From assembly GCA_964395115.1 (NCBI GenBank), contig CAYMZX010000013.1, forward strand, positions 1-55,165: DNA of 55,165 nt, written 5' to 3'. This document shows positions 4,612 through 53,524 of this stretch, piece after piece. Each line of letters opens with the position of its first letter. Within the stretch, counting starts at the first letter, position 1. The stretch comes from an uncultured Gammaproteobacteria bacterium. GTDB taxonomy: Bacteria; Patescibacteriota; Microgenomatia; UBA8517. A model generated the notes under the pieces. That model was given only the letters and a program-made list of their open reading frames with translations, did no database searches and was not told the origin of the DNA. The translations under genes and the position numbers were made by a program.

Positions 4612-4640
4612 TTGATTTTAGTTTTTTCCAAATCTATGAT
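4612..4640 (+). promoter_or_regulatory. Promoter of the divergent CxxC operon (leaderless geometry)
   Basis: TTGATT (4612-4617), 17 nt spacer, TATGAT (4635-4640), then 6 nt to ATG 4647. No SD is possible. Confidence 0.5.
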
Positions 4641-4646
4641 TTATTC

Positions 4647-5015
4647 ATGAGAAAATTTATTGTCATCATTATCCTGACGACCCTTCTAATAATCGGGGTT
4701 GGAATTTTCTATTCAACAAAGAGTTCTAAAAAATCTCTAGGTTTATCTTCGGGATACGAGTATTACTGGAGCACCACCTGCCCGCACTGTGCTAGGGTTC
4801 AGGAATTCATGGATTCCTGGGAGGGTACGGCTAAAATCTCTCTTGAGAAAAAGGAAGTCGACTCCCCAATCAATTCAAACCTTTTAGTGAGGCGGGCTAG
4901 CGCCTGCAATATTTCCGTGAGTGATATCGGCGTGCCCTTTCTTTTTACGCCCGAGGGGAAATGCATCATTGGCGACGAACCGATTATTGAATATCTTAAA
5001 AACTTAAATTTATGA
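4647..5015 (+). CDS. Membrane-anchored thioredoxin/glutaredoxin-fold protein, CPHC active site
   Basis: N-terminal TM helix (FIVIIILTTLLIIGVGIF), then YYWSTTCPHCARVQEF and a later GVPFLF cis-Pro-like loop. Confidence 0.65.
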   Translation: MRKFIVIIILTTLLIIGVGIFYSTKSSKKSLGLSSGYEYYWSTTCPHCARVQEFMDSWEGTAKISLEKKEVDSPINSNLLVRRASACNISVSDIGVPFLFTPEGKCIIGDEPIIEYLKNLNL

Positions 5016-5566: not shown

Positions 5567-6102
5567 CAAAAATTAACGACTATAAATCTTTACTTCAGAG
5601 AGTTGAAAGTGCAATCGCCCAAAAGGATCTTGATCTTTCGGCAGGGGAAGATCTTTCTATTGGAATAATGAATTTAATCTCCATTGAGGAACACCTTTTT
5701 TACACCGCCCAAAAGACAAAAAACACCAAATATCTTGACCTTTTAAATGAGGTAAGGGCAATGAGAATCGATCTTCTTAAAGATATCATTAAAGATTATG
5801 AGGGAGAGATCTGGTGTATCAGCAAACACCTTCTGGCCGCCTCAATGAGACTTATGGAAGTGGGAACCAAAGAACTTAAGAAAGGCGGCAAAGAAAAAGC
5901 GCGGTCCCTTTTTGAAAAGTCATATAAACTTTATTCATTGTTTTGGGGAATGAATCTAGGGGTTAACACAAAAGACAACCTTGAAAGGAAGGATAGTAAT
6001 GTTAATTTTATCGACGAAGAAGGAAGGAAAAAGGGGTCTGTTTCTGTCTTTGCTAAATTAAGGTCTTTAATTCAAAAAGCCGTTGACTGCTGCAAAGAAT
6101 AA
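5563..6102 (+). CDS. Hypothetical helical protein ending in a vicinal Cys pair (..VDCCKE)
   Basis: Long ORF with an ATGA overlap to the upstream membrane protein. No TM segment and no family recognised. Confidence 0.5.
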   Translation: MTKINDYKSLLQRVESAIAQKDLDLSAGEDLSIGIMNLISIEEHLFYTAQKTKNTKYLDLLNEVRAMRIDLLKDIIKDYEGEIWCISKHLLAASMRLMEVGTKELKKGGKEKARSLFEKSYKLYSLFWGMNLGVNTKDNLERKDSNVNFIDEEGRKKGSVSVFAKLRSLIQKAVDCCKE

Positions 6103-6123
6103 ATCCTTAGACCGCTAAAAAAA

Positions 6124-6663
6124 TTAAAGTAAGACTACGAAAAACAAAAAAATAATTAAACACATCCACCAATAGTATTTTTGTCCTCGTTCCTTTATCT
6201 CTAATGGAAAATTTCTTAACCAATTTGCTAGAGAGCCCATCTCGGTAAGATCAACCGCCTCGTCTACCAGAAGGTGCAAACAAAAAGCCAAGACTACCCC
6301 TTTCCCCATCACGCTGTTGGAAGAGGTTAAAACAAAAAATGTCAAAATCAGAAAGAGAAGTTGAAAAATGACAGTATGAAAGATAAGCCGGGTCCGGTCG
6401 GACCGGGTTTCGGCCAAGAGATTCATCGAGCCTAAAAAATCCCTTTTGCAAATCATGTAGCTCACCCTTTGCGAAGTAAGCTCTTGTGGTCGAAGGAAAA
6501 AAATGTATATAAGATGGTCGAGATCGGGCAAAATCGTTCCGATAACCCCGCTTAACCAAAAAGGCCAGTAAGAAAGATTAAGCCAGCCTTTTAAAAGAGA
6601 GGCCAAAATTAAAAAAGAAAAAAGAAAGCTTAAGTGAATGAAAATTTCTCTCTTCATCGGCAA
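6124..6663 (-). CDS. Integral membrane protein, possibly YdjM/DUF457-like metal-dependent hydrolase
   Basis: Multiple TM segments. LPDLDHLIY, HTV and HLLVDE motifs resemble DUF457. Confidence 0.4.
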   Translation of the reverse strand: MPMKREIFIHLSFLFSFLILASLLKGWLNLSYWPFWLSGVIGTILPDLDHLIYIFFLRPQELTSQRVSYMICKRDFLGSMNLLAETRSDRTRLIFHTVIFQLLFLILTFFVLTSSNSVMGKGVVLAFCLHLLVDEAVDLTEMGSLANWLRNFPLEIKERGQKYYWWMCLIIFLFFVVLL

Positions 6664-6684
6664 GATACTTAGATCTTATCCTAC

Positions 6685-6969
6685 CTAATTCTTTATCGCA
6701 AACCCAGAAAATTCGCCGGTTGCCTCTTCCTTAATAACATCGATGTGGGAGACAAAGGCAAGCGGCGGTCCCTTTTTGCAAGCCGCTATCATCTTCTCTA
6801 TTTTCCCTTTTTCTCCCTCAAAAATCGCTTCGACTCTCCCGTCTTCCAAATTTCTTACCCAGCCGACTATCCCAAACCTCTGGGCTAGTTTCTTGGTCCA
6901 GTGTCGGTAAAAAACTCCTTGAACTCTGCCTTGTATATAGACATGGACTCGGGTGAGAGAAAATTTCAT
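6685..6969 (-). CDS. acyP: Acylphosphatase
   Basis: VHVYIQGRVQGVFYRHWT...GWVRNLEDGRVEAIFEG signature. The ATG at 6969 forms an ATGA overlap with the upstream gene. Confidence 0.88.
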   Translation of the reverse strand: MKFSLTRVHVYIQGRVQGVFYRHWTKKLAQRFGIVGWVRNLEDGRVEAIFEGEKGKIEKMIAACKKGPPLAFVSHIDVIKEEATGEFSGFAIKN

Positions 6970-7268
6970 CTTCCTTTCCAAAGGCATTTTTTTAAATCCA
7001 CATGTTTTTCATCTTTAAAAATAACGCCCTCCAAGATAAGTCTCTTTTTCTGTTCTGCCTCACCATCGAAGGCAAAATTGTAAGCCAGCCTGCCCTCCTT
7101 ATTAACAACCCTGTGGCAGGGTATCGCACGGTTTGAATTCGCATGCAAGGCCCAACCTATTCGACGAGCGTCCTTGCTCTTCACTAGTTTGGCTACCTGT
7201 CCGTATGTAGCAACTTTACCCGAGGGAATTTTCCTTACTACTTTATAGACTTTTTCAAAATAATCCAT
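6966..7268 (-). CDS. MGMT-family protein (stand-alone O6-alkylguanine transferase DNA-binding/active-site domain)
   Basis: VATYGQVAKL...IPCHRVVNKEG retains the PCHR active-site cysteine. At 100 aa it lacks the N-terminal domain. Confidence 0.8.
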   Translation of the reverse strand: MDYFEKVYKVVRKIPSGKVATYGQVAKLVKSKDARRIGWALHANSNRAIPCHRVVNKEGRLAYNFAFDGEAEQKKRLILEGVIFKDEKHVDLKKCLWKGR

Positions 7269-7270
7269 CT

Positions 7271-8239
7271 TTAATCGGTAAAAACCTGAACAAACATTTT
7301 GCCATAGACCCCGTTATCAATTACCCCTATCCCAACTTTCCTGAACTTGGGTTCCAAGACATTCGCCCGGTGGCCCTCGGAATTCATTAAACCTCTGTGG
7401 GCGGTTGAAACAGTCGGCGCCAGAGCCAAATTCTCGCCGGCTAAATGATAGTCAATTCCCGCCTTGTCTAATCGGTCACCTACATCCTGTCCTTCCGGGG
7501 AATAGTGTCCGAAATATTTTCTTTCCCACATGTCTTTTGCATGGACCCTAGCTACAGCCACTATTTCCGGCGACCACATCAATTCTTTAATTCCCTGCTT
7601 TCTCCTCTCTTCGTTGACAAGCCTAAACATTTCTGTTTCCGAGGTCGAATCGATCTTTATCTCTCGCTTTTCAATAGTAATGGCGATCGCCTCTTTACTG
7701 CCCGGTTTAACAGTCAAATAAGTTAAAGAGTCCTCCACCACTCCACCAAAGATTTCATTAACAGTTTTTTCTATTCCCGAAGTTTGGAGGAGGATAAAAC
7801 CGCCAATTTTTGAATCAGAAACCTCCTTTTTAATGATCGGCCGAACAGGCATGCTAACAACCAAAGTCAAAACAAAAGCAATCAGGATCATCCCTTCGCC
7901 AATAGAGGGAATCACCGCCAACAATCGGTTGAATCTAATTTTCAATAGCTTCTTCGGAATTCTAGACAATAGCCAGCCCAAGATGAATCCGAATAACGCT
8001 TCGAGGAGAATAGCGGTGATCAAAAACCCAACGGCGTTGGAAACTGAATGAGAAATGGAAAAATTTGACCTTAAAAATTGAGCGGTAAATTTGTAGGCTC
8101 TTAAAGAAATCAGTATCGAGCCCAAAAAAGAAAAGAAGTCCGCCAAAATTACCCAAAATCCATGGCGCCACGCCTCGGAAGCAAAATAAATAAGAATCAA
8201 GATTATCAGAAGATCCACCCAGTTGCCGTTAATATTCAT
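7271..8239 (-). CDS. CvpA-like membrane domain fused to a CAP/SCP (YkwD-like) domain
   Basis: Four N-terminal TM helices typical of CvpA. The C-terminus (NEERRKQGIKEL...HAKDM...GENLA...MNSEGHRANVL) matches the CAP domain. Confidence 0.7.
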   Translation of the reverse strand: MNINGNWVDLLIILILIYFASEAWRHGFWVILADFFSFLGSILISLRAYKFTAQFLRSNFSISHSVSNAVGFLITAILLEALFGFILGWLLSRIPKKLLKIRFNRLLAVIPSIGEGMILIAFVLTLVVSMPVRPIIKKEVSDSKIGGFILLQTSGIEKTVNEIFGGVVEDSLTYLTVKPGSKEAIAITIEKREIKIDSTSETEMFRLVNEERRKQGIKELMWSPEIVAVARVHAKDMWERKYFGHYSPEGQDVGDRLDKAGIDYHLAGENLALAPTVSTAHRGLMNSEGHRANVLEPKFRKVGIGVIDNGVYGKMFVQVFTD

Positions 8240-8577
8240 TTTTCTTTGAGCCTCCTTTGGAGGCTATGTCTCCATAAGTGCTTCTCGCTTCGCTGCGACT
8301 TCTCTTGTGTGTCAACTTTATTCGCTTTTTTCAGCTCAGAAAGTTTCCACATAAATAGCTTTGGCTTACTTTTTACATTGTAAGCGTCTTTGACAAAGTT
8401 TTTGGCCGCCTCCAGTAGTCCCCGTGGAGTTTCCTTGGCAAGTTTTATATAAAGAGACTTATTTTTTAGGTCCCCTAGTTCTTTTGCCAAATCATATCCA
8501 TATTTCTGAAATTCGTAAGAGATATATTTGTCCTCGTCGGACTGGAACTGCTTTAATATGTCGCCAATTTTTTGCAT
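8236..8577 (-). CDS. Hypothetical protein
   Basis: ORF with an ATGA overlap to the cvpA-like gene. No recognisable motifs. Confidence 0.45.
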   Translation of the reverse strand: MQKIGDILKQFQSDEDKYISYEFQKYGYDLAKELGDLKNKSLYIKLAKETPRGLLEAAKNFVKDAYNVKSKPKLFMWKLSELKKANKVDTQEKSQRSEKHLWRHSLQRRLKEK

Positions 8578-9026
8578 ACTTCTTCGATAACCCCATCCAA
8601 AACCTTTCTTTCTTTACCGGTAAAATCCTCTAAAACATATTTTTCTCCGGATACTCTGTCTTGGAGGCAACGATTATCAATCCCGATTCTGACCCTCCAA
8701 AAGGCTTGCGACCCCAACTGCTGACAAATTGAAAGTACTCCCTTGTGGCGGCGTGGACCTTTTCCTTTTTGAATTTTGTAGCTCCCCAAAGGAATGTCTA
8801 AATCGTCATGAATTATCCATAAATCCGACACATTAATTTTATATTGTTCAACTAATTTTTTCACAAATTTTCCAGACTCGTTCATAAAACAGTCCGTTTT
8901 GGACACTACTATTTTTTTTAATTTTGATTTTTGACTTTTGAATTTATCAATTACCATGTGCCCGACATTGTGGCGATTGTTTCGGTATAGCTTTCCCGGA
9001 TTTCCTAATCCAACAATAATTCTCAT
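8553..9026 (-). CDS. pth: Peptidyl-tRNA hydrolase
   Basis: MRIIVGLGNPGKLYRNNRHNVGHMVID N-terminal signature. Confidence 0.88.
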   Translation of the reverse strand: MRIIVGLGNPGKLYRNNRHNVGHMVIDKFKSQKSKLKKIVVSKTDCFMNESGKFVKKLVEQYKINVSDLWIIHDDLDIPLGSYKIQKGKGPRRHKGVLSICQQLGSQAFWRVRIGIDNRCLQDRVSGEKYVLEDFTGKERKVLDGVIEEVCKKLATY

Positions 9027-9043
9027 CGGTTTATTTTAACAGA

Positions 9044-9676
9044 CTAATCTTTTTCTACGAAGGGCACGAAGTGAAATATGCCGTATTCTTTTTCTTCGAT
9101 TTCTTCTTTTCCTCGTTTCATGATTTTTGTATATTTAGTCATTTTTTTGTCCCACCCTCTCCCCACTGGGGCCACTAAAACCCCGCCTTCTTTTAGTTGC
9201 TCGAATAGGGCGGGTGGAACTTTTTCAATACCGGCGGTCACCAAAATTGCATCAAATGGGGCTTTTTCTTTCCAGCCAAACTCACCACTTCCCTCTTTTA
9301 TCTCTATGTTTTTGTATTTTAGTTTTTCGAGGGTCTTCCTAGCCCTTTCAGCAAGAGCTGGTATAATTTCGATGGTATAAACTTTTCCCGCCAACTTGGA
9401 AAGAACAGCCGCCTGATAACCAGAACCGGTTCCTATTTCCAAAACTTTTTCCCGCCCTTTTAAGTTCAAAAGATTAGTCATAAAGGCCACTGTGTAAGGT
9501 TGGGAAATCGTCTGTCCAAAACCGATGGAAATGGGCATATCTTTATAGGCTAAATGACGGTATTGAGTTGGAACAAACTTTTCCCTAGGGACCGAGAGCA
9601 GTGCGGAGAAAACTTTGGGGGCATCAAGGTTATATTTCTCCTTTATTTCCAGGATCATGTCCTGAGGAGAATACAT
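9044..9676 (-). CDS. pcm: Protein-L-isoaspartate O-methyltransferase
   Basis: GQTISQPYTVAFM and SAM motif VLEIGTGSGYQAAVL. Confidence 0.88.
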   Translation of the reverse strand: MYSPQDMILEIKEKYNLDAPKVFSALLSVPREKFVPTQYRHLAYKDMPISIGFGQTISQPYTVAFMTNLLNLKGREKVLEIGTGSGYQAAVLSKLAGKVYTIEIIPALAERARKTLEKLKYKNIEIKEGSGEFGWKEKAPFDAILVTAGIEKVPPALFEQLKEGGVLVAPVGRGWDKKMTKYTKIMKRGKEEIEEKEYGIFHFVPFVEKD

Positions 9677-9693
9677 TTCGAATTAACTAAGTT

Positions 9694-10011
9694 TTACGCC
9701 TTGCTAGCTAGCTTTCGAGCAAATTTCCCTAAACCAGGTACTTCCCATTCTTGGCCCTGCCAAGCTTTGTAAATAAGAATTAACCAAAGCACAAAACCAA
9801 TTATTCCTACCAAAGGAACAAGGCCAAGAAGAACTATCGTCAGGCCCAAAATCCATTGCAAAACAAAAAGTCCAGTGAAGACTACTATTGACTGCATAGC
9901 GTGAAACCTAATAAATGGGTCTTTCTCCAGTACAAGAAAGATCACCCCAGTGATGGGTCCTAATACATACGCCAGCGCACCGGCTGTTTCTTTTTTAAGT
10001 CCAGTTGCCAT
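9694..10011 (-). CDS. Small membrane protein (DUF4870-like)
   Basis: ALAYVLGPITGVIFLVLEKDPFIRFHAMQS plus three TM segments. ATG 10011 is preceded by the perfect SD GGAGGTGA at 5 nt, so the longer 10092 start is rejected. Confidence 0.6.
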   Translation of the reverse strand: MATGLKKETAGALAYVLGPITGVIFLVLEKDPFIRFHAMQSIVVFTGLFVLQWILGLTIVLLGLVPLVGIIGFVLWLILIYKAWQGQEWEVPGLGKFARKLASKA

Positions 10012-10051
10012 TATTATCACCTCCCCTTTAATTTGCTTACATTTCATAATT

Positions 10052-11407
10052 TCAGAAAAGTGTTCCTTGGTCAATAGCGTCTTTGCTTTCATAGGCTGTT
10101 GGACTTTTCCAAATCTTTACTTTTCCGAATACGCCGTCGTATCCGGGTTCAATCACGATATCACCGCTTCTCACTTTATTGATGGCTTCCGCCACTTTTG
10201 GCCCTCCGACTCTCTCGATATCCACACTCTTGGTTTCAAGTAAAACCTTGAACTCGCTCCCTAAAGAAGAAGTTAAAAGCTCATATAGATTTCTTACTTT
10301 TTGGCTAGCATTTCCAGTTCCCAAGACCTCCGCCAAAATCTCCAGAAGCGGAACCATCATTACGTAAGGCGCTCTTTTCCCTTCCCGGTCTTTAATCCAA
10401 CGGACACCAAATTCGTCTTTTTGGCTTTCGGTTTCAATCTCCGTTGAAGCTAATTCCTCTACCCGACTCATTACCCCAACAGTTAATTGACGACCACAAA
10501 TGGGGCAGGTTGTTCCCATCTTTCTTGTCTCATTTGGAGAGTAAACAATTTGGCAGTTTCTATGGCCAGTATAATGGTACTTTCCTTCTTCGGGATAGAA
10601 TTCGATGGTACAACCTATCTCCCAATCTCCTTCAGGATTGCCGCGAATAGCGTCATAAATATCGTTGTAATTTATATTATTAATTTTTGGTCTGCCACCT
10701 TGATTTTCGATTCTCGTTTTTTTGATTTGGAATACTGTTGCTTCTCTTCCAAGTTTTGCGGGCGAATGGGCATCGGAGAAAGAAACGATTCTGCGGTTTT
10801 TTAGCTCCTCTATTCTCCAATTCATGGCCGGATCGCTCGAAAGTCCGGTTTCAATCGCATAAATTTGAGGGGAAACTTCCCCAAAACATTCCTCAATTGA
10901 ATCAAAACCGGAAACGCTACCATATAAAGAAAAGTGCGGCGTCCAGGCATGGGCGGGAATGATCAGACATCGACTATCTATTTCTAAAGCTATTTCAGCT
11001 ACATTTTTAGCCGTGAGGCCAACGATCGGTCTGCCATCAGAAAGAAGATTTGCCCCTCTTAAGGTAAGTTCCTTATTTATCTTGGAAACAGTGCTAAAAC
11101 TGGGAGCAAACAGGAGGGTGTGAATCTTCCTTAGCTTTCCCTTCTGGGAATAGATAGAGGAGATTTCTGTTGAAAGCAGAAAACGGGGCGACCCCTCGGG
11201 TTGACCCTCAACCCGATAGACTCCTTCCCCCGCCTCTCGGAGCTGGGATTCTAGCTCCCTGAACCATAACGGATGGGTCCAATCCCCTGTAGCCACCAAT
11301 TCTATCCCTTTTTTCATTGCCCATTCGGAAATAGTTGGAATGTTCATTTCTTGAGAAACGGCTCGCGAGAATCTTGAGTGGAGCTGTAAATCAGCAATCA
11401 CCTTCAT
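10052..11407 (-). CDS. Endonuclease Q-like PHP-domain protein with zinc ribbon
   Basis: N-terminus MKVIADLQLHSRFSRAVS (PHP His motif) and an internal CPICGRQLTVGVMSRVEEL zinc finger. The architecture resembles the archaeal EndoQ family. Confidence 0.65.
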   Translation of the reverse strand: MKVIADLQLHSRFSRAVSQEMNIPTISEWAMKKGIELVATGDWTHPLWFRELESQLREAGEGVYRVEGQPEGSPRFLLSTEISSIYSQKGKLRKIHTLLFAPSFSTVSKINKELTLRGANLLSDGRPIVGLTAKNVAEIALEIDSRCLIIPAHAWTPHFSLYGSVSGFDSIEECFGEVSPQIYAIETGLSSDPAMNWRIEELKNRRIVSFSDAHSPAKLGREATVFQIKKTRIENQGGRPKINNINYNDIYDAIRGNPEGDWEIGCTIEFYPEEGKYHYTGHRNCQIVYSPNETRKMGTTCPICGRQLTVGVMSRVEELASTEIETESQKDEFGVRWIKDREGKRAPYVMMVPLLEILAEVLGTGNASQKVRNLYELLTSSLGSEFKVLLETKSVDIERVGGPKVAEAINKVRSGDIVIEPGYDGVFGKVKIWKSPTAYESKDAIDQGTLF

Positions 11408-25495: not shown

Positions 25496-27829
25496 TTATA
25501 GTTTGGCACGCCGGGTAATTTCTGCTTCTACTAATTTTTGGTCCCTTCCGTATTTTAGTCTACTCATTTCTTTAATTATCTTAGCCACTCTTGGATTCAT
25601 TGCCTCTTTTTCTTTACTTAAGTCTTTAGTCAAATCCATGGAAAAAGGCGGAACCGGCTCGTTATTGACAATCGTTTTTATATAAACATGGAAGCGTTCG
25701 ATGTTAAGAAGATCATCCTCGCCAAAAACTGGAGTAAATTCATGAGCTAAGTAGGATGCATCGGTTACCCCAACCCTGAAACAAATAACCGTTCCGACGT
25801 TTCCGAAAACCGCATTTTTTACTTCCTCTTCTACTTGGCCGATAAATTGATTGGCAACGACTAAGTTAAGCCTGTATTTTCTGGCTTCCGATAAGATCTG
25901 GGCAAAATCGGGAGTAGCGAAATTTTGAAATTCGTCAACATATAGATAAAAATCCCGTCTTTGTTCTTCGGGTATATCCTGCCTGCTCATAGCGGCCATT
26001 AAAATTCTCGGGACCAAAACCAATCCCAAGAAATTTGAGTTTTCCTCTCCAATTTTTCCTTTCGCCAAGTTAATAAGAAGGATTTTTCCTTCATCCATCA
26101 CTTTTCTGAAATCAAAAGAGCTGCGGGATTGACCTATAATGTTTCTGATCATCTTATTGGTTACAAATCTTCCAAACTTAGAAACGATGTAGTCCAATAC
26201 TTCAGATTTATGGAAATCCGCCGTCTGAGCAATTTGATCGGTCCAATACCGTCTGACAATCGGATCGGTAACTTTAGGAAGAAGTTCCTGGACAAAACGG
26301 GAATCGGTTAATATCCTCATTACCTCTACAAAGGTATTCCCCTCCTCTGCCATCGCCGTCAGCATTGCGTTTCTGACAGCATGTTCAAATCTTGGACCAA
26401 CAATTCCGGTTTTATAAGGATCGAAGAGTTTATACATCATATTGATTACCGATGTGGCCACAAAATGCTTTTGATCCTCGGTGTAAGCTTCTAAAAGATT
26501 TAATCCCATCGGTCTCTCTGTATCTCCTGGGTCAAAGTAGATAACATCTTCTGCCCGCTCGGGAGGAATTAAGGACAGAAGGTCTTCGATTGCATCGCCG
26601 TGCGGGTCCATAAAACAAAGCCCTTTGTTGTTTTTTATATCTTGCATTATCAGGTCTTTTAGAAGTTCCGTTTTCCCTGTTCCTGTCTTTCCAATAATGT
26701 ACATGTGGCGCCTTCGATCGTCTTCTCGAATATATACTGGCCTCTTTATTCCTCGATAAGTACTCACTCCCATGAAAAGCCCTTCGCTGGCAATTTCCGA
26801 GGGCGCGGGCGCGGTCTTTGCGTAAAGCCAGTAGATGTGTGGGGTAGTTATTTGCTTGTTGGGAAAATGAAAAATACTAGCCAATTCTTCGCTATTTAAA
26901 ATTGAAGGTCTGTTTCCGAAAAGATTGAACATTGGCTGATATCGATAGAGGAAGTCCTCCATAAAGGCACCTTTGTTTCTTATTTTTCTTTTTTTAAGGC
27001 TGTTGTTTTCTCCCGAAAACTGTTCAAGGGAGGCGGAAATATTTGAGAGATGCATTTTGGCCGTCTCTGAAATTTTTGCTGACACTACCACCCTAATCGA
27101 AGTCTCGAATCCGGGTTTACTTATTTTGGACTCTACGGCTTCTAAGGTTTTGGCGCTGGTAGCAAATTTCGCCTTTTCGGGATCAGATTCCTGTTTTTTT
27201 GTTTCTGAGATAAACCCTCTCCCTTCTTTCTGCCAAGAAGAGTTGGCAGGTGAAACTAAAATCTGAACTACCGCCCCTTCTTCCTCGCCCATCTTTGCCA
27301 AACCCGAGGTTAAAGCCGCCAGTGGGTCAGTCGGAAGGTCTTTATAGGTCTTTAAAGGGTAAAAGTTTGACCGGGAAAGCTGGAACGATGCGTAAGCAAC
27401 TTTGCCTTTCTCGGAAAAAATGTTATGTTCTTGAACCTCTAGAACTTCCGCGTCGGGATATGCTCCATGAATGAGTTTTTCTATTAAATCTTTATATTCT
27501 CGGGGTGTCCAAACATAAAATCTGATATCTTCTTTTTTGGCAACTATTTCGAAAGAAATTGCCGGCTGGGCGGAAAATTTTTGCCTCCACCCCCCTCTTT
27601 TTATCGAATAAAGAGAGGCAAAAAGTTGTTCCATAGCATCAATTTTTATCTCATTTCCTCTAGGAACCGCCACCTGAAGCAAAACCGAATCAATCGACTG
27701 TTCTTCTCTCCCTCTAAATTTAAAAAGAACAAAAAAAACGTAGCCAAGGGCGATCAAAGCAAAAAGAAGAATGCTGGCCAAAACAAGAAGGAAAAAAACG
27801 ATGGAGTAGTCGATCGCCCAAAGTTGCAT
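25496..27829 (-). CDS. VirD4/TraG/TraD-like type IV coupling-protein-family ATPase with N-terminal TM anchor
   Basis: Two N-terminal TM helices, a ~330-aa unassigned domain, then the P-loop NTPase: Walker A IIGKTGTGKTE and Walker B YLYVDEFQNFA. Confidence 0.7.
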   Translation of the reverse strand: MQLWAIDYSIVFFLLVLASILLFALIALGYVFFVLFKFRGREEQSIDSVLLQVAVPRGNEIKIDAMEQLFASLYSIKRGGWRQKFSAQPAISFEIVAKKEDIRFYVWTPREYKDLIEKLIHGAYPDAEVLEVQEHNIFSEKGKVAYASFQLSRSNFYPLKTYKDLPTDPLAALTSGLAKMGEEEGAVVQILVSPANSSWQKEGRGFISETKKQESDPEKAKFATSAKTLEAVESKISKPGFETSIRVVVSAKISETAKMHLSNISASLEQFSGENNSLKKRKIRNKGAFMEDFLYRYQPMFNLFGNRPSILNSEELASIFHFPNKQITTPHIYWLYAKTAPAPSEIASEGLFMGVSTYRGIKRPVYIREDDRRRHMYIIGKTGTGKTELLKDLIMQDIKNNKGLCFMDPHGDAIEDLLSLIPPERAEDVIYFDPGDTERPMGLNLLEAYTEDQKHFVATSVINMMYKLFDPYKTGIVGPRFEHAVRNAMLTAMAEEGNTFVEVMRILTDSRFVQELLPKVTDPIVRRYWTDQIAQTADFHKSEVLDYIVSKFGRFVTNKMIRNIIGQSRSSFDFRKVMDEGKILLINLAKGKIGEENSNFLGLVLVPRILMAAMSRQDIPEEQRRDFYLYVDEFQNFATPDFAQILSEARKYRLNLVVANQFIGQVEEEVKNAVFGNVGTVICFRVGVTDASYLAHEFTPVFGEDDLLNIERFHVYIKTIVNNEPVPPFSMDLTKDLSKEKEAMNPRVAKIIKEMSRLKYGRDQKLVEAEITRRAKL

Positions 27830-28138
27830 TTAAATTATCCTCTTTCTAGCCGCTATCTTTCTTATTCTGGCAAGAATATTGCCGAGCCAAGTTGATGAAC
27901 TATCAACCGACCCCTTGGCTAATAGTTCGATATCCCCTTCTAAAGCAGGAATACTGATTTCTTGTTTCTGGGACTCGGAGTTGATAATTAAATTTTGGGA
28001 GTTATTCTCCACCTTTACCGGTATAGCCGGCTCGACCGTCTCAATACCAGTCTCTTTTAGAAGCTCGGCTGGTAAATTGGGCGCTTGAGGTATCTCCTGA
28101 ATAGTGGGTTTCTCTTTTTTCCCAAACTCCAATACCAT
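27830..28138 (-). CDS. Hypothetical 102-aa protein, directly abutting the ATPase gene
   Basis: Its stop codon is immediately adjacent to the ATPase ATG. Acidic/polar body with a basic amphipathic tail (WLGNILARIRKIAARKRII). Confidence 0.45.
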   Translation of the reverse strand: MVLEFGKKEKPTIQEIPQAPNLPAELLKETGIETVEPAIPVKVENNSQNLIINSESQKQEISIPALEGDIELLAKGSVDSSSTWLGNILARIRKIAARKRII

Positions 28139-28173: not shown

Positions 28174-28698
28174 TCACTTCTTACTGGATTTCCAGATTTC
28201 CTCCTTAACTTCTTGTTGATAATTGATTTCTCGAGCAAGAATAAATAAGTAATCGGATAATCTATTCAGGTAAGCCAAAATTTCCGGCTTTAAGCCTTCT
28301 TTTTTGTCTAAACGGACAATTACCCGCTCTGCCTTTCTGACTAAAGCTCGCGCGTAAAAAAGATTGGCGGAAGTTGCTGTCCCCCCAGGAAACACAAAAT
28401 TCTTTAAAGCAGGGAGACTTTTCTCCAACTCGTCGATTTTTTTCTCTAGTCTATTAATCCTTGTTCTTGGAAAAATCAAAGGGGCCCCAGCTATAATGGC
28501 GGCCACATTAAATAAATTTTTCTGAACTTCCTTTATTTGCTTAAGCTCTGGATTTTGCGAGGAAATGATTCCCAAATAACTATTAACCTCATCAACCGCT
28601 CCGACTGCCTGAATTCTCAAAGAGTTTTTTGAAACCAGTTTTCTTTTTCCCAATAACGAGGTTTCTCCTTTGTCGCCTTTTTTTGTATAGATAGCCAT
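28174..28698 (-). CDS. pduO: ATP:cob(I)alamin adenosyltransferase, PduO type
   Basis: MAIYTKKGDKGETSLLG... matches the PduO-type N-terminal signature. ATG 28698 lies 11 nt after the nrdJ stop, so the TTG 28737 extension is rejected. Confidence 0.85.
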   Translation of the reverse strand: MAIYTKKGDKGETSLLGKRKLVSKNSLRIQAVGAVDEVNSYLGIISSQNPELKQIKEVQKNLFNVAAIIAGAPLIFPRTRINRLEKKIDELEKSLPALKNFVFPGGTATSANLFYARALVRKAERVIVRLDKKEGLKPEILAYLNRLSDYLFILAREINYQQEVKEEIWKSSKK

Positions 28699-28709
28699 GG
28701 GGTCCAATT

Positions 28710-30887
28710 TTACAACTCGCAGGTGGAAAACCCGCAATATTCACATTTAAAACATTTTCCCTCTTTCTTGAGCTCAAGGTCGCAATTCGGACATTTCATT
28801 TTTTTGGGATAGTTCCGCCTTCCCCCAAATTCAAAAACTTGATTCTCCTTGGTTTTGTCTCGATATACCGTCAGCCCCTTACACCCCAGCCTCCATGCCA
28901 GAATGTAGGCTTCTTTTATGTCCCTTGGGGAAGTATTAGTAGGCATGTTAATAGTTTTAGTGATCGCATTATCGGTGTATTCTTGAAATGCCGCCTGCAT
29001 TTTGATGTGATCTCGCCAAGAAATATCGTGGGCGACTTTGAAGATGGCCTGTAAATCCTTGGGGATATCTTTTATTCCTTGGACACTACCATGATTTTCA
29101 ATAATTTTTTGGGTAAGCCCGTCCGAATAGATTCCCCTTTCTTTAAGTTTTTCGATGAAAAATGGAATTACCGTTTTTAATCTGATCCCCTCCATTACTA
29201 CCTGCTCATATGCAACGGCGAAATATGGTTCAATTCCGAATGAGGTATCACATATAACCGCGTTTGATGAACTGGGCGGGAAAGTCAAAAGAGCAACGTT
29301 CCTGGGTTTCCGTTTTGCCTTCGCCCAAATAGAATCTCCAACAAGAGGAAAGGGTCCTTTTTCTTCGGCTAGCCGACACGATTCATCGAAAGCGTTCTCA
29401 TACATCGTTTTGGCTATTTTTCGTGCTAAAAGAAAGGCCCGAGGGCTATCATAAGGAATTTCCAGTCGGGCTAAAGCCTCTGCCCAGCCGACCGCCCCAA
29501 TCCCTATCCTCCGATGATTCTTGACGGTCTTTCGGACTTCCATTACCGGAAACCAAGAGGCTTCAATTACATTATCCATAAGCCTGACCGCCACCCTGAT
29601 AACATCAGACAATCTTTCAAAGTCAAACTCCCCTTCCCTGATAAAATGGCTGAAATTCAGGTATCCTAAATTACAGGATTCGAATGGATATAAAGGAACT
29701 TCTCCACAAGGATTGGTGGCCATTATTGGCCCCCGCTTTTTCAAAAGGGGATTTCCTAAAGCGGTGCCGCGGTTAATAGCAGAAAGATTGATTATGCCCG
29801 GATCGCCAGTTTGCCAAGCCATACTCGCCATTAACTCAAGGATTGATTTGGCATTTACGGTGTTCACTACTTCTCCAGTTCGCGGATTGATTAAATCCCA
29901 ATTTTTACCAGCAATCGCCGCCCGCATAAAATCGTCAGTTATCCCAACTGAAATGTTTGTTTTGGAAAGATAACCGTCGTTTTGCTTAGCCGAAATGAAA
30001 TTAAAAATATCGGGGTGATTAGCGTTTAAAATCGCCATATTGCCACTTTCGTATTTACCCTCTTGTTTAAAAAGCGATGTCATCAAATCAAACATCTCAA
30101 TCATCTTGACTGGCCCGGCTGCTAAATTCGGGGTTCCTCCAACCGTATCTCCCTCCGGTCTAATGCGGCTAAAATTATAACCACAGCCTCCTCCGTGCTT
30201 TTTGATAAGAGTAGATTTATGAAGAATTTCAAAAATTTTATCGATATCGTCCTCCACCGGCCAGACAAAACAGTTCGCTAATTGTGAATAAAGCTTTCCG
30301 GCGTTGGCGAGGGTTCTGGACCCTGGCAAAAAGTCGAGGGAGATCATTATTTCCTTAAATTTTTGATACCACTTTTGTTGTTTGTTCTTTCCTTTTTCCA
30401 CCGACGCCAAAAATTTAGCCACCCGATCTATCATGCCGCCAGGAGTTTCAACGATTTCCCCTTTTTCGTTTCTCTTGAGGTATCTTTGTTTGAGAATATA
30501 CAGAGAGTTATAGGAGAGACCAATATCATCTTCTATCCCCAAGGCCCTTTTATCTTGGTTTAGATGTTTTTTGTTCTCTCTATAGACAATAAAAGCCTTG
30601 GCCGTTCTAGCATGACCATTTTCGATGAGGATTTTCTCTACAAGATTGCCTATTTCCGCAGTTGGGACAGCCTCACCGTTTTTAAACTTGACCTTTAGAA
30701 TGTTAACAACTTGGTTTCCCAGAACAACCGAGAGGGTTCTGTCGGTTCCGCCCACATTCTGGGCCGCCATAAAAATCGAGTTAATAATCTTTTCGGGTTT
30801 GAATTCTTGGCTGCTTCCATCCTGTTTGATAACGGTTTTGATCATTTCTTCAGCATTCAGAATAACCGCAAGCATGGCATTTCTCAC
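28710..30887 (-). CDS. nrdJ: Adenosylcobalamin-dependent (class II) ribonucleotide reductase, paralogue 2, with N-terminal ATP-cone
   Basis: ATP-cone VIKQDGSSQEFKPEKIINSI and catalytic loop TNPCGEVPLYPFESCNLG. C-terminal 6-Cys tail CPNC-x9-CFKCEYC-x4-C. An alternative start at 30845 (MIKTVIKQDG) is possible; 30887 has GAGGG 9 nt upstream. Confidence 0.88.
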   Translation of the reverse strand: MRNAMLAVILNAEEMIKTVIKQDGSSQEFKPEKIINSIFMAAQNVGGTDRTLSVVLGNQVVNILKVKFKNGEAVPTAEIGNLVEKILIENGHARTAKAFIVYRENKKHLNQDKRALGIEDDIGLSYNSLYILKQRYLKRNEKGEIVETPGGMIDRVAKFLASVEKGKNKQQKWYQKFKEIMISLDFLPGSRTLANAGKLYSQLANCFVWPVEDDIDKIFEILHKSTLIKKHGGGCGYNFSRIRPEGDTVGGTPNLAAGPVKMIEMFDLMTSLFKQEGKYESGNMAILNANHPDIFNFISAKQNDGYLSKTNISVGITDDFMRAAIAGKNWDLINPRTGEVVNTVNAKSILELMASMAWQTGDPGIINLSAINRGTALGNPLLKKRGPIMATNPCGEVPLYPFESCNLGYLNFSHFIREGEFDFERLSDVIRVAVRLMDNVIEASWFPVMEVRKTVKNHRRIGIGAVGWAEALARLEIPYDSPRAFLLARKIAKTMYENAFDESCRLAEEKGPFPLVGDSIWAKAKRKPRNVALLTFPPSSSNAVICDTSFGIEPYFAVAYEQVVMEGIRLKTVIPFFIEKLKERGIYSDGLTQKIIENHGSVQGIKDIPKDLQAIFKVAHDISWRDHIKMQAAFQEYTDNAITKTINMPTNTSPRDIKEAYILAWRLGCKGLTVYRDKTKENQVFEFGGRRNYPKKMKCPNCDLELKKEGKCFKCEYCGFSTCEL

Positions 30888-33432
30888 AGCCCTCTTCGAA
30901 AATTAACGCACTTGCTCCACAGGCCGGACATATATCTCCCGGTCCCTCGACTAAAGTCTCGTTAAACGCGGCCGAAGCCGCTGTGGGGTCATCAGAACCC
31001 GCCAATGCGGGCTGGTCTGCGGGGGCAGAACCGTTAGCCGCCATAACAGCTTCAGCCACGTTTAACGCGGCTTTAACCTGGTCATAGTTAACATCTGCTT
31101 TGTTTTCAATAATATGGTTCCCATTTCCATTTATCTTAAATCCGCAATGATAAGAAAGTGCGGCTGCGATAGCATCGGGCAAAGACCGAATCTTATTTGG
31201 TCCAAAACCGACTGACCGACGACCGCCGATACCGGAAAGCTGTTTGGCGATCTCGTAGGCTCTCTCTTTCGAAGTTAGGCTACCCTTAAGCCTTAACGAG
31301 GTCGAAATGGTCCGACCCAACGCCTCGGCCATGGCCGCCACATCGCTTCCAGCCTTTCCAACATTAATGAAAACTTCCAGCGGGTCTCCGTTTTGATCTT
31401 GGTTGATAGTGACAAAAGCAGTCCCGACAGGTGTGCCAAGACGATAAGTCGAGCCGGTTACTTTAAAAGGCCTTTCTCTCAGGGATCCGCCTCCTGCTGC
31501 TCGCTCTGAATCGCCATCTTTGACTCCCAAATTTAAGACTTGGCTTGTCCGACTACCATCACGAAAGATGGTTATCCCTTTGCATCCGGTTTCCCAAGCC
31601 AGCAGATAGGCTCTCTTGACATCATTGACTCCGGCTTCATGTCGAAGATTTATGGTTTTAGAAACGGCATTCTCGGTATATTTTTGAAAAACCGCCTGAA
31701 CCCGGATATGCCATTTGGGGTCGATCTCGTGAGCTGTTATAAATATTCTTTTTATATCTTCAGGAATCTCTTTAATTTCTCTGACCGTCCCTTTTTCCAT
31801 AACTTTCTTAATTAAATCTTCCGAGTCTAGCCCTTTTTCTTCTAAGATCTTTTGAAAATTGGGGTTGACAAAAGTTAATCGTCTATCGATGTGTTTATCG
31901 GACACGACATGTTGATAAACGACCGCAAAAATGGGTTCAATGCCACTGGATGAACCGGCTATAATAGAAATTGTTCCGGTCGGAGCAATGGTTGTCACGG
32001 TAGAATTTCTTCTAGGTAATTCATTTTTGTAAATAGATATTGGCCAAAGCGGAAATGGTCCGCGTTCTCTTGCTAGTTCCCGACTTGATTCGACAGCCGT
32101 TTCCTGGATTAACTTCATGATTTTTTCCGCCAAATCCATGGCTTTTTCTGAATCGTATGGAATTCCCAGTCTAATCAGCATATCGGCCCATCCGCCAACT
32201 CCGAGCCCAATTCTTCTGATAGCAAGAGTCATCTTTCTTATTTGTGGAAGGGTGTAAGGGTTAACTTCAATGACATCGTCAAGAAATCTAACCGCCAACT
32301 TTGTCACCTCTATAAGCCTTGCCCAATCAACACTTTTCTTTTCTCCCTCTTCTTTAACAAAATGGTTCAAAAAAATACTGCCTAAATTGCAGGAATCGAA
32401 TGGGTAGAGTGGCTGTTCCCCGCATGGATTCGTGGACTCGATGGGTCCCAGAGAAGGAACGGGGTTGGCTGGGCTTTTATTTATCCTATCAATAAAGACT
32501 AGTCCAGGATCCCCTGTTTCCCAAGCCTGCTGACAAATTTTATCAAAAACCTCAACGGCGCTGGCTTTGCCAACTGCTTTGCCCGTTCTCGGATCAATCA
32601 GACTATATTCGCCACCCCTTTGATAGGCTTTCATAAAATTATCGGTTAAGGCAACCGAAATATTGAAATTGGTTATTCCGCCATCTCTTTTACAGCGAAT
32701 AAAATCCAAAATATCCGGATGGTCAACCCTTAAAATTCCCATATTGGCTCCTCTTCTCTTTCCGCCCTGTTTAATTTCGTTGGTAGCGGCATCGAAAATC
32801 TTCATAAACGATACCGGCCCAGAGGCAGTACCTCTTGAAGTCTTGACCATCGAGCCCTTGGGCCTGAGGCGACTAAAGGAGAATCCTGTTCCCCCTCCTG
32901 TCTGGTGAATTAATGCCTGCCATTTAAGGGCATCAAATATTCCCACTAAAGAATCTTCTATAGGAAGAACAAAACAGGCGGAGTATTGGAGACCGTTTCT
33001 GGTACCTGCATTCATAAGGGTGGGAGAATTGGGAAGAAATTCACGAGAAACCATAAGTTGGTAAAACCTCTTGGCAATTTCAATGATGGATGTCTTTTTT
33101 GCCCCCCAGATGGCCTCGCTTGATGCCACTTCCCACGCAACCCGCCAACACATCTCTTCTGGAGTTTCTATAACTTTTCCACTCCTGTCCTTAAGAAGAT
33201 ATCTTTCTTGAAGAACTTTTAGGGCTTGGGGTGTCCAGTTTCCTTTGGGAGCCGAGTGATAAAGCGGAGGCCGTTTTCCAACCAACTTGTCTATTTGATC
33301 CCTGACTTGATTATAGTCTGAAAACTCTAATGACTCGAAAGATAATCCTTTGGAATTCGTCTTCACGACCCTGCCGTTTTTACGACCTCGGCGTTTTTTT
33401 GTTCGACTCGCTTGTATGATTGTATTAAGCAT
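30850..33432 (-). CDS. nrdJ: Adenosylcobalamin-dependent (class II) ribonucleotide reductase, paralogue 1, no ATP-cone, extended C-terminal region
   Basis: Catalytic loop TNPCGEQPLYPFDSCNLGS. TSCPD-like segment (VTGSTYRLGTPVGTAFVTINQD...VFINVGKAGSD). C-terminal 6-Cys tail CPAC-x10-CEKCHAC-x4-C. Confidence 0.9.
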   Translation of the reverse strand: MLNTIIQASRTKKRRGRKNGRVVKTNSKGLSFESLEFSDYNQVRDQIDKLVGKRPPLYHSAPKGNWTPQALKVLQERYLLKDRSGKVIETPEEMCWRVAWEVASSEAIWGAKKTSIIEIAKRFYQLMVSREFLPNSPTLMNAGTRNGLQYSACFVLPIEDSLVGIFDALKWQALIHQTGGGTGFSFSRLRPKGSMVKTSRGTASGPVSFMKIFDAATNEIKQGGKRRGANMGILRVDHPDILDFIRCKRDGGITNFNISVALTDNFMKAYQRGGEYSLIDPRTGKAVGKASAVEVFDKICQQAWETGDPGLVFIDRINKSPANPVPSLGPIESTNPCGEQPLYPFDSCNLGSIFLNHFVKEEGEKKSVDWARLIEVTKLAVRFLDDVIEVNPYTLPQIRKMTLAIRRIGLGVGGWADMLIRLGIPYDSEKAMDLAEKIMKLIQETAVESSRELARERGPFPLWPISIYKNELPRRNSTVTTIAPTGTISIIAGSSSGIEPIFAVVYQHVVSDKHIDRRLTFVNPNFQKILEEKGLDSEDLIKKVMEKGTVREIKEIPEDIKRIFITAHEIDPKWHIRVQAVFQKYTENAVSKTINLRHEAGVNDVKRAYLLAWETGCKGITIFRDGSRTSQVLNLGVKDGDSERAAGGGSLRERPFKVTGSTYRLGTPVGTAFVTINQDQNGDPLEVFINVGKAGSDVAAMAEALGRTISTSLRLKGSLTSKERAYEIAKQLSGIGGRRSVGFGPNKIRSLPDAIAAALSYHCGFKINGNGNHIIENKADVNYDQVKAALNVAEAVMAANGSAPADQPALAGSDDPTAASAAFNETLVEGPGDICPACGASALIFEEGCEKCHACGYSEC

Positions 33433-33868
33433 TTTCTATTGCTTTTTCAAAATCGGTCAGATCCTCGAATTGTAAATAAACGCTGGCAAAACGAAGCCAA
33501 GCTACCTTATCGATCTTTTTTAACTTCCTCAATACCGACTTTCCGATCATTTTGCTCGAAATTTCCTCCGATCCGTGTCTTAATATTTCTCTTTCAACTT
33601 CGTTGATAATTTCTTCTACTGAATCAAGCGACACCGGTCTTTTTTCAATCGCTCTAAGTATTCCCCTTCTTATCTTCTCGCGATCAAAGGGTTCTCTCCG
33701 CCCATCTTTTTTTATAATCCAGAGAACGGTCCCTTTTACCTTCTCGAATGTCGTAAACCTTCTATGACAGCTCTTACACTCCCGCCGCCTTCTTATCGCC
33801 TCGGCATCGTCAACTGTTCTAGACTCTAAAACTTCGGTTTTATTGCCGCCGCAAAATGGACATTTCAT
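33425..33868 (-). CDS. nrdR: Transcriptional repressor NrdR
   Basis: Zinc ribbon MKCPFCGG...CKSCHRRFTTFE followed by an ATP-cone. 8-nt overlap with the nrdJ start. Confidence 0.92.
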   Translation of the reverse strand: MKCPFCGGNKTEVLESRTVDDAEAIRRRRECKSCHRRFTTFEKVKGTVLWIIKKDGRREPFDREKIRRGILRAIEKRPVSLDSVEEIINEVEREILRHGSEEISSKMIGKSVLRKLKKIDKVAWLRFASVYLQFEDLTDFEKAIENA

Positions 33869-33900
33869 ATGCTTTCTTTATTTCACGAATGTAAATAAAA

Positions 33901-33954
33901 CTCACTATTGGTAGAGACAATCATGATATTCCAACACTAAATAGGTTGTGTCAA
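33901..33954 (-). promoter_or_regulatory. nrdR-nrdJ operon promoter with candidate NrdR operator(s)
   Basis: Minus strand TTGACA (33954-33949), 17 nt spacer, GAATAT (33931-33926). An imperfect palindrome ACACAACCTATTTAGTGT (33951-33934) overlaps the -35 box and spacer. A weaker ATAGTGAG half-site element lies at 33916-33901. The NrdR box consensus is ACACwAtATaTwGTGT. Confidence 0.35.
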
Positions 33955-34122
33955 CTGCAAATTAATAACTCAAAGAAGATCACTTCACGCGTACTGTGAG
34001 GCTAAAAGAAGAAATAAGAAAGCGGAATTTTTGTTTCGGGAAAATTTTCCTGAAGAATTTTTTAGGTCAATCGAAAGAGGTTTAAAAAAGACTTGGTCAC
34101 TTTATTAGCCCAAAAAACCAAC

Positions 34123-53373: not shown

Positions 53374-53401
53374 TTGACATTAGATTCCAAAAAAGCATAA
53401 T
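53374..53401 (+). promoter_or_regulatory. Promoter driving the riboswitch leader
   Basis: TTGACA (53374-53379), 16 nt spacer, CATAAT (53396-53401). The predicted start lies just before the P1 helix. Confidence 0.55.
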
Positions 53402-53408
53402 GAGTTTG

Positions 53409-53513
53409 CGAGACTGTGTTTAAGGAAGAAGGTGGAATTCCTTCGCTGTGCCGCAACCGTAATTACCCACAAAATGGGGTAAAGCCGGAAAACTAACAGC
53501 CTCGAAGTATTCC
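53409..53513 (+). promoter_or_regulatory. Cobalamin riboswitch (compact, AdoCbl-variant / class II-like)
   Basis: P1 CGAGACTG / CAGCCTCG. Core AAGGAAG-GAAGG(TGGAATT)CCTTC-GCTGTGCCGCAACCGTAA. Hairpin TTACCC/GGGTAA. B12-box-like AAGCCGGAAAAC. Downstream ATTCC (53509-53513) is complementary to loop GGAAT and sits next to the SD AGGA. Confidence 0.75.
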
Positions 53514-53524
53514 GAGCAGGAAAA

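Follow-up and report, generated by a model that had tools for sequence, protein, structure and literature searches.

An nrdR-nrdJ-nrdJ-pduO operon of a Woesebacteria-like bacterium pairs a canonical class II ribonucleotide reductase with a member of a divergent NrdJ subfamily

Introduction

Ribonucleotide reductases (RNRs) are a textbook case of enzymes that process all four substrates at one active site, and loop 2 with its arginine is treated as near-universal. Here we describe an operon of a Woesebacteria-like bacterium, nrdR-nrdJ1-nrdJ2-pduO, in which two class II RNRs of different kinds are encoded side by side and the second, NrdJ2, departs from this pattern. The operon lies on contig CAYMZX010000013.1 of assembly GCA_964395115.1, of which the whole analysed stretch of 55,165 nucleotides is referred to below as the window. 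Its gene order recalls the nrdR-nrdJ operon of Streptomyces, which begins with nrdR, continues with a class II RNR gene and carries tandem palindromic boxes on its promoter; the operon of the window has two reductases and pduO.

The best solved relative of both proteins is the NrdJ of Thermotoga maritima, a dimeric class II nucleoside diphosphate (NDP) reductase (PDB 1XJE, 1XJK; E 1.8e-123 for NrdJ1 and 9.4e-96 for NrdJ2). NrdJ1 shares with it the P-N-S-P motif, the K-Q...R-R of loop 2, APTG and the equivalents of Cys134, Cys322, Cys333, Asn320 and Glu324, but adds a Cys-less IscU/TSCPD domain, a zinc-finger tail and a basic N-terminal extension of about 65 aa. NrdJ2 differs from it by an added ATP-cone and by the replacement of Arg207-Arg208 with Tyr-Glu, of APTGS with PPSSS and of P-N-S-P with P-G-S-R. 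Arg207 is the equivalent of Arg298 of the Escherichia coli enzyme, which contacts the beta-phosphate and the base of all four substrates; the R298A mutant has little or no activity, and Arg298 "may be strictly conserved" (Zimanyi et al., 2016, PMC4728125).

The apical loop has been linked to the phosphorylation state of the substrate, P-N-S-P marking diphosphate reductases and P-[ASG]-G-R nucleoside triphosphate (NTP) reductases (Schell et al., 2021, J Biol Chem, PMC8365446). The same paper reports that a single G-to-S mutant of a Thermus-virus enzyme lost most GTP reduction and showed mere traces of GDP reduction, and that 760 of 1108 multi-NrdJ organisms mix NDP and NTP types. Like those mixed genomes, the window pairs a P-N-S-P enzyme with one whose apical loop ends in Arg. 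The motif of NrdJ2 and its orthologues, P-G-[ST]-R, is absent from those named in the Results and Discussion of that paper, namely P-N-S-P, P-A-G-R (position 2 also being S or G), P-S-M-R and P-Q-G-S-P, and these sections do not discuss loop 2, distal-loop changes or operon context. For the C-terminus, an IscU-like (TSCPD) domain and a Cys-rich zinc finger have been described for class II RNRs (Loderer et al., 2017, within Burnim et al., 2022, PMC9669993); in the types of the latter paper NrdJ1 has a "long C-terminus" and NrdJ2 a "short C-terminus with zinc finger", both tails showing the pattern of four Zn-binding Cys and a Cys pair.

Linkage of a class II reductase to its cofactor supply is known from the nrdJ-cbrS-cbrT-pduO cluster of Lactobacillus delbrueckii, a B12 auxotroph in which PduO makes adenosylcobalamin (AdoCbl) for NrdJ (Santos et al., 2018, eLife, PMC5997447). 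The window operon shares the nrdJ-pduO linkage with that cluster, but it is without genes for an ECF-CbrT (energy-coupling factor) transporter and has two reductases and nrdR instead. The linkage itself, the co-occurrence in one genome of several NrdJ that differ in phosphate specificity, and the domain types are already known from the sources cited, and an nrdR-nrdJ-pduO operon as such is ordinary for the lineage. What is new is the uncharacterised NrdJ2 subtype: our literature search, outside which lay RNRdb and the supplements of Schell et al. (2021), returned nothing on it or on multi-NrdJ operons in bacteria of the candidate phyla radiation (CPR). It represents a large, strongly conserved multi-phylum subfamily that keeps the radical machinery, has every phosphate contact rebuilt and was never found as the sole RNR. 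It thereby offers a handle on the question raised by Schell et al. (2021) of why many microbes keep several NrdJ, and the pair in this operon is small, predicted to be co-expressed and easy to clone.

Two complete reductases in one operon

The four genes are co-directional on the minus strand and form one operon (Table 1). All four score above curated Pfam or NCBIfam cut-offs, the pduO product reaching 160.9 bits with TIGR00636 (equivalog cut-off 108.45) and 165.8 bits with the Cob_adeno_trans domain. An earlier reading of the window, made without database searches (the sequence-only reading), had proposed just this anatomy of a four-gene co-directional operon with an adenosyltransferase and two complete class II RNRs of different domain layout, and the family and domain searches bear it out. 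Its 8-nt overlap of nrdR and nrdJ1 (ATGCTTAA) and its 11-nt spacing of nrdJ2 and pduO both match the sequence. The distance of 0-38 nt that it gave for nrdJ1 and nrdJ2 is roughly right in size, but the upstream starts of nrdJ2 produce an overlap of 26 or 38 nt with nrdJ1 and no gap. The longest open reading frame (ORF) of nrdJ2, from GTG 30887 to 28710, encodes 725 aa as had been stated; we favour the ATG at 30845 (711 aa, leaving a gap of 4 nt) because the closest orthologues have 711-712 aa.

NrdJ1 is composed of the Ribonuc_red_lgN (PF00317), barrel (PF02867) and TSCPD domains and has no ATP-cone, with scores of 704.5 bits against NrdJ_Z (TIGR02504, cut-off 399.95) and 1020 bits against PRK08665 (cut-off 961). 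NrdJ2 consists of an ATP-cone followed by PF00317 and PF02867, in line with the N-terminal cone and short C-terminus described earlier, and scores 586.8 bits with NrdJ_Z. Both redox Cys, the N-P-C-G-E motif and a 6-Cys tail are present in each protein, the catalytic and redox residues being C153, N335, C337, E339 and C348 in NrdJ1 and C192, N378, C380, E382 and C391 in NrdJ2 (711-aa numbering). With a complete catalytic loop and tail in each, neither copy is a fragment, as the sequence-only reading had held. Both tails match, by their cysteine pattern, a class II zinc finger with four Zn-binding Cys and a terminal redox Cys pair, and a single aromatic residue stands in both proteins where E. 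coli has Y730-Y731, so that neither has the Tyr-Tyr radical-transfer dyad.

The conservation of NrdJ2 was assessed over 120 clusters of relatives with at least 69% identity, in which the first redox Cys, the thiyl Cys, the Asn, the Glu and the second redox Cys are each found in 120 of 120. A loss of radical or active-site cysteines had been named beforehand as the sign of a pseudoenzyme; on careful alignment all catalytic and redox Cys proved present and conserved, which rules out a pseudoenzyme through cysteine loss. NrdJ2 also keeps the effector contacts D141, K158 and R171 (T. maritima numbering) and the equivalents of E. coli D232 and R262. In canonical ATP-cones nucleotide binding starts at a K-R-D-G motif whose arginine has a role there. 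NrdJ2 has K-Q-D-G at this place, and its Woesebacteria-type clade shows no conservation of the Arg; Dojkabacteria-type members of the subfamily keep K-R-D-G.

A rebuilt phosphate pocket in NrdJ2

In a first alignment with all 43 other NrdJ, the NrdJ2 type differs from every one of them in loop 2, in the distal phosphate loop and in the motif G-G-G-C-G, which the others have as G-G-G-T-G. The column of E. coli Arg298 and T. maritima Arg207 is occupied by Tyr265, followed by Glu266, and the loop-2 arginine expected of a class II enzyme is thus absent; in an alignment with E. coli NrdA the tyrosine falls on Arg298 in 7 of 7 subfamily members. The residue just before it, Lys264 in NrdJ2, is Lys or Arg in all 120 relatives, and this basic residue might take over part of the arginine's role. 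The apical loop reads P-G-S-R in NrdJ2 and mostly P-G-T-R in its orthologues, which is neither P-N-S-P nor P-[ASG]-G-R of the published rule (Schell et al., 2021). All three phosphate-contacting elements, the apical loop, the distal loop and loop 2 (which also contacts the base), are rebuilt in this subfamily.

The partner enzyme lacks these changes. NrdJ1 has the apical loop P-N-S-P, the loop 2 KQGGKRRGANM and the distal loop IAPTGTIS, and retains the loop-2 arginine as R226; because of its P-N-S-P it is predicted to be an NDP reductase. The sequence-only reading had described this copy as an 860-aa protein without ATP-cone but with a long TSCPD-like C-terminal insertion. Length, missing cone and domain hold, but the domain is a C-terminal extension (residues 667-761) and not an insertion. 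It has GKAGSD and SLPD in place of the motif cysteines, and these are likewise replaced (GKAGS[DE], S[LV]PDA) in 22 of the 22 TSCPD-type NrdJ of the class examined, a departure from the IscU-like domain motif as named. Judged by its domain match it is a Cys-less variant of the same fold family, and an Fe-S or thiol role for the domain is excluded for these 22 NrdJ because the motif Cys are absent. At the other end, residues 1-65 of NrdJ1 (33238-33432) form a basic low-complexity extension (RTKKRRGRKNGR...) ahead of the all-alpha domain, which is also present, though variable, in relatives and has no family match.

Ancient paralogues and a multi-phylum subfamily

Over 574 residues, NrdJ1 and NrdJ2 are 44% identical. 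A quick IQ-TREE analysis of 49 NrdJ of the class, rooted at the midpoint and without an outgroup, places NrdJ1 among 16 TSCPD-type enzymes in a starred clade and NrdJ2 in a separate clade of 6, which has a long stem of 1.09 substitutions per site and then a tight crown. By this evidence the two are anciently diverged paralogues of different NrdJ clades. They are adjacent, as the word tandem used of them implied, but they are not a tandem duplication, and a recent one is ruled out by the 44% identity and the separate starred clades.

Further members of the subfamily were sought with the patterns QL[AG]NCFVW and G[KR]YESGNM. Members with an ATP-cone occur in WWE3, Dojkabacteria-like and CPR3 genomes (51-53% identity), and forms without the cone in an Anaerolineae metagenome-assembled genome (MAG), in Micromonospora, in Streptomyces and in a Pseudonocardiales MAG (46-49% identity). 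All 20 sampled members lie on one side of a branch with 100% SH-aLRT, and the sister group is a CPR clade with an ATP-cone and an NTP-type apical loop. The subtype was never found as the sole RNR: the window genome and 10 of 10 further genomes have other RNR barrel genes, and five genomes have the nrdJ2-type gene far away from their remaining NrdJ genes.

In Micromonospora sp. (L082, about 1400-10200) and S. yaizuensis (L087, about 2900-11100) the cone-less member sits within a conserved same-strand cluster. Its genes encode a split thiamine pyrophosphate (TPP) decarboxylase, a weak phosphoribosyltransferase-like ORF, a NUDIX protein, a FolE-like GTP cyclohydrolase I, a methyltransferase, Maf, a ribokinase-like PfkB and an F420-type luciferase-like monooxygenase (LLM) oxidoreductase, and from this gene content the cluster looks like a nucleoside-type metabolite pathway. 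These actinomycete relatives suggest that the same chemistry may serve the making of unusual deoxynucleosides, which would be of relevance to natural-product and biocatalysis work. An H2-neopterin-type substrate for NrdJ2, to which the FolE neighbour might point, is unsupported here, the window genome giving no match to GTP cyclohydrolase I.

Other unusual NrdJ were seen in the course of these comparisons. A single ORF of 1439 aa (L094, 876-5195, minus strand; also in G288, G289 and G291), from Dojkabacteria-like genomes, contains two complete and different NrdJ barrels, each with its own Cys/Asn/Glu set, together with one IscU-like domain and one terminal zinc-finger tail, and is preceded by nrdR and a tail-less NrdJ of 595 aa. 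Other families of the class (L018, L020, L021, L023, L025, L027 and L031) have three to five NrdJ genes in an array, drawn from at least five deep clades, and in one of these clades the apical loop starts with Cys (F-V-C-S-G-K) and not with Pro.

Conservation of the operon in relatives

The plain order nrdR-nrdJ1-pduO is found, whole or in part, at 11 of 11 single-copy loci of the same family, with all three genes at 6; some of these loci end at contig ends. Into this order nrdJ2 is inserted between nrdJ1 and pduO in four genomes (G006, G008, G021, G187), and in two (G010, G002) it closes an array of three nrdJ genes. Because just 6 of 37 distinct genomes of the family carry it, nrdJ2 is regarded as accessory and dispensable.

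A scan with one genome per species comprised 55 loci. An orthologue with 66% identity or more is present at 35 of them, and 30 of these 35 include 2.5 kb or more of DNA upstream. At all 30, the gene directly upstream of the nrdJ2 orthologue encodes another class II RNR (one of these loci, L074, was scored by hand owing to an over-long ORF call), and at 2 of them this RNR is of a distant type resembling ribonucleoside triphosphate reductase (RTPR-like). nrdR is present at 24 of the 30 loci and pduO downstream at 22 of the 35. The partner has P-N-S-P or a near variant at 22 of 30 loci (19 P-N-S-P, 1 P-G-S-P, 2 P-N-A-P); a partner with P-A-G-R was found in one pair (L047) and two trios (L041, L053). 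The tandem arrangement is kept in about 30 related species genomes, and it recurs in public data: contigs of two public runs labelled hot springs metagenome, possibly the source samples, contain the stretch, with 0 differences, and one of them, of 7346 bases and from run X2, spans both nrdJ2 junctions. Recurrence in relatives and this bridging contig rule out an assembly artefact, the second ground on which the sequence-only reading might have failed.

Promoter and NrdR boxes

Upstream of nrdR, a candidate operon promoter is overlapped and followed by two candidate NrdR boxes and a palindrome (Table 1). NrdR boxes have a consensus and a spacing of 31-32 bp, about three helical turns, and their conservation was tested here in 37 distinct nrdR upstream regions of relatives. 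Boxes were scored at up to 3 mismatches to CACTAnnnnTAGTG, a tolerance at which some single-box matches are expected by chance. Box pairs 31-32 bp apart were found in 17 of the 37 regions and at least one box in 35, and both AGTTGAC and boxes of the CACTAnnnnTAGTG type recur at the same places as in the window. The nrdR gene and the predicted paired palindromic boxes, 32 bp apart at the promoter, fit an NrdR repressor with its regulon. A generic promoter and terminator scan, in which predictions were no more frequent than in shuffles, missed the TTGACA promoter because its -10 is weak; this promoter is hence a candidate only. No RNA data set is listed for the stretch.

The palindrome TTT(A/T)CA-N4-TGAAA occurs in 25 of the 37 nrdR leaders, at a fixed spacing from box 2 and at 16-159 nt from the ATG. 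Its arms are invariant among relatives and thus do not distinguish an RNA stem from a protein-binding site. A second conserved element, (G/T)TGAT(A/C)T..TTTTGA(C/G), lies at 33969-33983 on the minus strand, about 15-20 nt upstream of the -35-like hexamer, and is found upstream of nrdR in many relatives; it may represent an UP-like element or a further operator.

Cofactor supply

The genome from which the window comes (648 kb, 18 contigs, 97% complete) has nrdJ1 and nrdJ2 as the sole RNR barrel genes found, and neither NrdD nor NrdB (PF00268) was found in it. Judged by this gene content, the organism depends on B12 for all deoxynucleoside triphosphate (dNTP) synthesis. The adjacent pduO, a riboswitch-like element below threshold and the finding of no other radical source lead us to predict that both NrdJ depend on AdoCbl. 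A thioredoxin reductase (TrxB) gene is present in the same window.

At the gathering threshold no cobalamin riboswitch was found in the window, on the operon or elsewhere. The only cobalamin-riboswitch-like match (RF00174) lies far from the operon, at 53397-53515 on the plus strand, with 27.4 bits against a gathering threshold of 31.5 (E = 1.5e-4). For a BtuC-type permease, a FecCD match of 22 bits, short of the cut-off, was all that was found, and with it no route of B12 uptake.

Possible functions of NrdJ2

We read the locus as an NrdR-repressed operon in which a housekeeping, NDP-type NrdJ1 is accompanied by an active accessory NrdJ2 of complementary substrate state and regulation, and give this reading a probability of roughly 0.55. 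NrdR would bind the two boxes over the candidate promoter, gate one transcript and autoregulate the operon, while PduO would adenosylate imported cobalamin and so provide AdoCbl for both reductases. NrdJ1 would act as the housekeeping dimeric-type enzyme on nucleoside diphosphates, with no overall-activity (ATP-cone) switch. NrdJ2 would be an accessory but catalytically competent AdoCbl reductase of a lineage related to triphosphate-type NrdJ; it would complement NrdJ1 with substrates of another phosphorylation state, most likely NTPs, and may differ in allosteric regime, the two co-transcribed enzymes sharing the work. The operon would in this way supply all deoxyribonucleotides of a B12-scavenging bacterium with an ultra-small genome. 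Substrate phosphorylation state as a division of labour, already suggested in the sequence-only reading, gains support from the differences in the phosphate pocket, but the partner of the NrdJ2 type is sometimes itself of the NTP type. The comparisons above show the identities of the genes, the conservation of residues and operon and the accessory status of NrdJ2; activity, substrate choice and regulation are inferred from them.

Several observations weigh against this account. The apical loop P-G-[ST]-R corresponds to neither published motif, and in view of the hybrid loop and the G-to-S mutant of the Thermus-virus enzyme an NTP specificity of NrdJ2 is a guess. Since a Tyr occupies the Arg298 column and R298A has little or no activity, canonical substrates may fail to bind to NrdJ2 altogether; against this stands the invariably basic residue one position earlier, which could substitute. 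Complementarity of NDP and NTP reduction does not account for every case, because the partner is itself of the NTP type at L047, L041 and L053. Control of NrdJ2 by dATP as an on/off switch is unproven because the Arg of K-R-D-G is not conserved in its clade, and the gene is dispensable within the family.

It is rather unlikely, though the likeliest of the alternatives, that NrdJ2 is no general RNR but a dedicated AdoCbl-dependent reductase for a non-canonical ribonucleotide, either one with a modified base or one in a further phosphate or ester state, such as a nucleoside monophosphate (NMP) or a nucleotide conjugate. A specialised substrate would agree with the joint change of all three phosphate-contacting elements across the whole subfamily, with the tyrosine at the position that touches the beta-phosphate and base of all four E. 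coli substrates (Zimanyi et al., 2016), with the constant company of another RNR in the window genome and all ten others, and with the placement of cone-less members in the conserved FolE-like/NUDIX/kinase cluster of Micromonospora and Streptomyces. In CPR bacteria, however, the gene sits within an NrdR-controlled dNTP operon without such neighbours, and the window genome is without GTP cyclohydrolase I. The dNTP-effector residues and the ATP-cone are kept, as for an enzyme tied to dNTP pools, and the residue beside the tyrosine is conserved as basic. A related and equally tentative suggestion, which we think doubtful, is that the NrdJ2 ("YESG") subfamily as a whole represents a new activity of the RNR superfamily, an AdoCbl-dependent 2'-reductase acting on a differently phosphorylated or non-canonical ribonucleotide and no longer on ordinary NDPs. 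If this were true, the activity would be used beside a housekeeping RNR in ultra-small bacteria and inside nucleoside-type metabolite clusters in actinomycetes.

That NrdJ1 and NrdJ2 form a heterodimer, the operon encoding one asymmetric enzyme, we regard as improbable. The 4-nt distance between their genes, with probable translational coupling, the invariable presence of a partner for NrdJ2 and the dimer-interface effector residues kept in both proteins would suit such an assembly, and the 1439-aa fusion in related CPR genomes demonstrates that pairing of NrdJ paralogues occurs in the group. The fused halves nevertheless come from other NrdJ clades, neither being of the NrdJ1 or NrdJ2 type; the partner of NrdJ2 varies among P-N-S-P, P-A-G-R and RTPR-like enzymes, in five genomes the nrdJ2-type gene is distant from any other NrdJ gene, and both proteins are complete in themselves, with a full catalytic set and a redox tail each.

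Redundant isoenzymes of the same chemistry, kept as back-up or for dosage, are very unlikely. Both proteins do exceed the NrdJ_Z cut-off with all catalytic residues kept, but they are co-transcribed and hence no condition-specific alternatives, and the long stem and tightly conserved crown of the NrdJ2 clade, together with a pocket signature invariant in 120 of 120 relatives, argue for a distinct, selected function. It is highly improbable that NrdJ2 is a non-catalytic nucleotide sensor or regulatory subunit, as the lost loop-2 Arg (inactive as alanine mutant in E. coli; Zimanyi et al., 2016) and the retained ATP-cone and effector site might suggest, for a sensor would need none of the catalytic and redox residues, of which the thiyl Cys, both redox Cys, Asn and Glu are invariant and the tail Cys are invariant in five of six cases and found in 116 of 120 in the sixth.

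Feature coordinates and neighbouring genes

Table 1. Genes of the operon and features within and upstream of them, in positions of the window
Feature	Position	Strand	Description
nrdR	33425..33868	minus	147 aa; transcriptional repressor with zinc ribbon and ATP-cone; TIGR00244 203.9 bits, cut-off 124.65
nrdJ1	30850..33432	minus	860 aa; canonical dimeric-type class II RNR
nrdJ2	28710..30845	minus	711 aa from ATG 30845; ATP-cone class II RNR, divergent "YESG" subfamily
pduO	28174..28698	minus	174 aa, ATG 28698; PduO-type ATP:cob(I)alamin adenosyltransferase
TSCPD (IscU-like) domain of nrdJ1, residues 667-761	31150..31434	minus	48.2 bits, cut-off 22.8
Cys-rich C-terminal tail of nrdJ1	30853..30930	minus	6 Cys: zinc-finger pattern and redox pair
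ATP-cone of nrdJ2, residues 4-93 (711-aa form)	30567..30836	minus	63.9 bits, cut-off 25.8
Loop 2 of nrdJ2, KQEGKYESGNM	30036..30068	minus	K-Q-G-G-K-R-R-G-A-N-M in others; Y-E-S-G-N-M 120/120
Finger loop and second redox Cys of nrdJ2, TNPCGEVPLYPFESCNLG	29664..29717	minus	N, C, E, C each 120/120
Distal phosphate loop of nrdJ2, FPPSSSNA	29259..29282	minus	IAPTG(T/S)IS in other NrdJ; F-P-P-x-S 120/120
Cys-rich C-terminal tail of nrdJ2	28713..28793	minus	6 Cys; five 120/120, one 116/120
-35-like hexamer TTGACA	33949..33954	minus	candidate operon promoter; AGTTGAC kept at the same place upstream of relatives' nrdR
-10-like GAATAT	33926..33931	minus	17 nt downstream of TTGACA; weak -10
Candidate NrdR box 1, core CAACCTATTTAGTG	33934..33949	minus	overlaps -35 hexamer and spacer; 32 bp upstream of box 2
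Candidate NrdR box 2, core CTCTACCAATAGTG	33902..33917	minus	downstream of -10; relatives have CACTAnnnnTAGTG at the same position
Palindrome/hairpin TTTACATTCGTGAAA (TTT[AT]CA-N4-TGAAA)	33881..33895	minus	fixed 21 nt after box 2 start

Directly downstream of pduO, at 25496-28138 on the minus strand, lie a 102-aa ORF and the gene of a 777-aa membrane-anchored P-loop protein. This pair is also found after pduO in one of the related genomes with the inserted nrdJ2 (G008, locus L017), so that synteny reaches beyond the operon.

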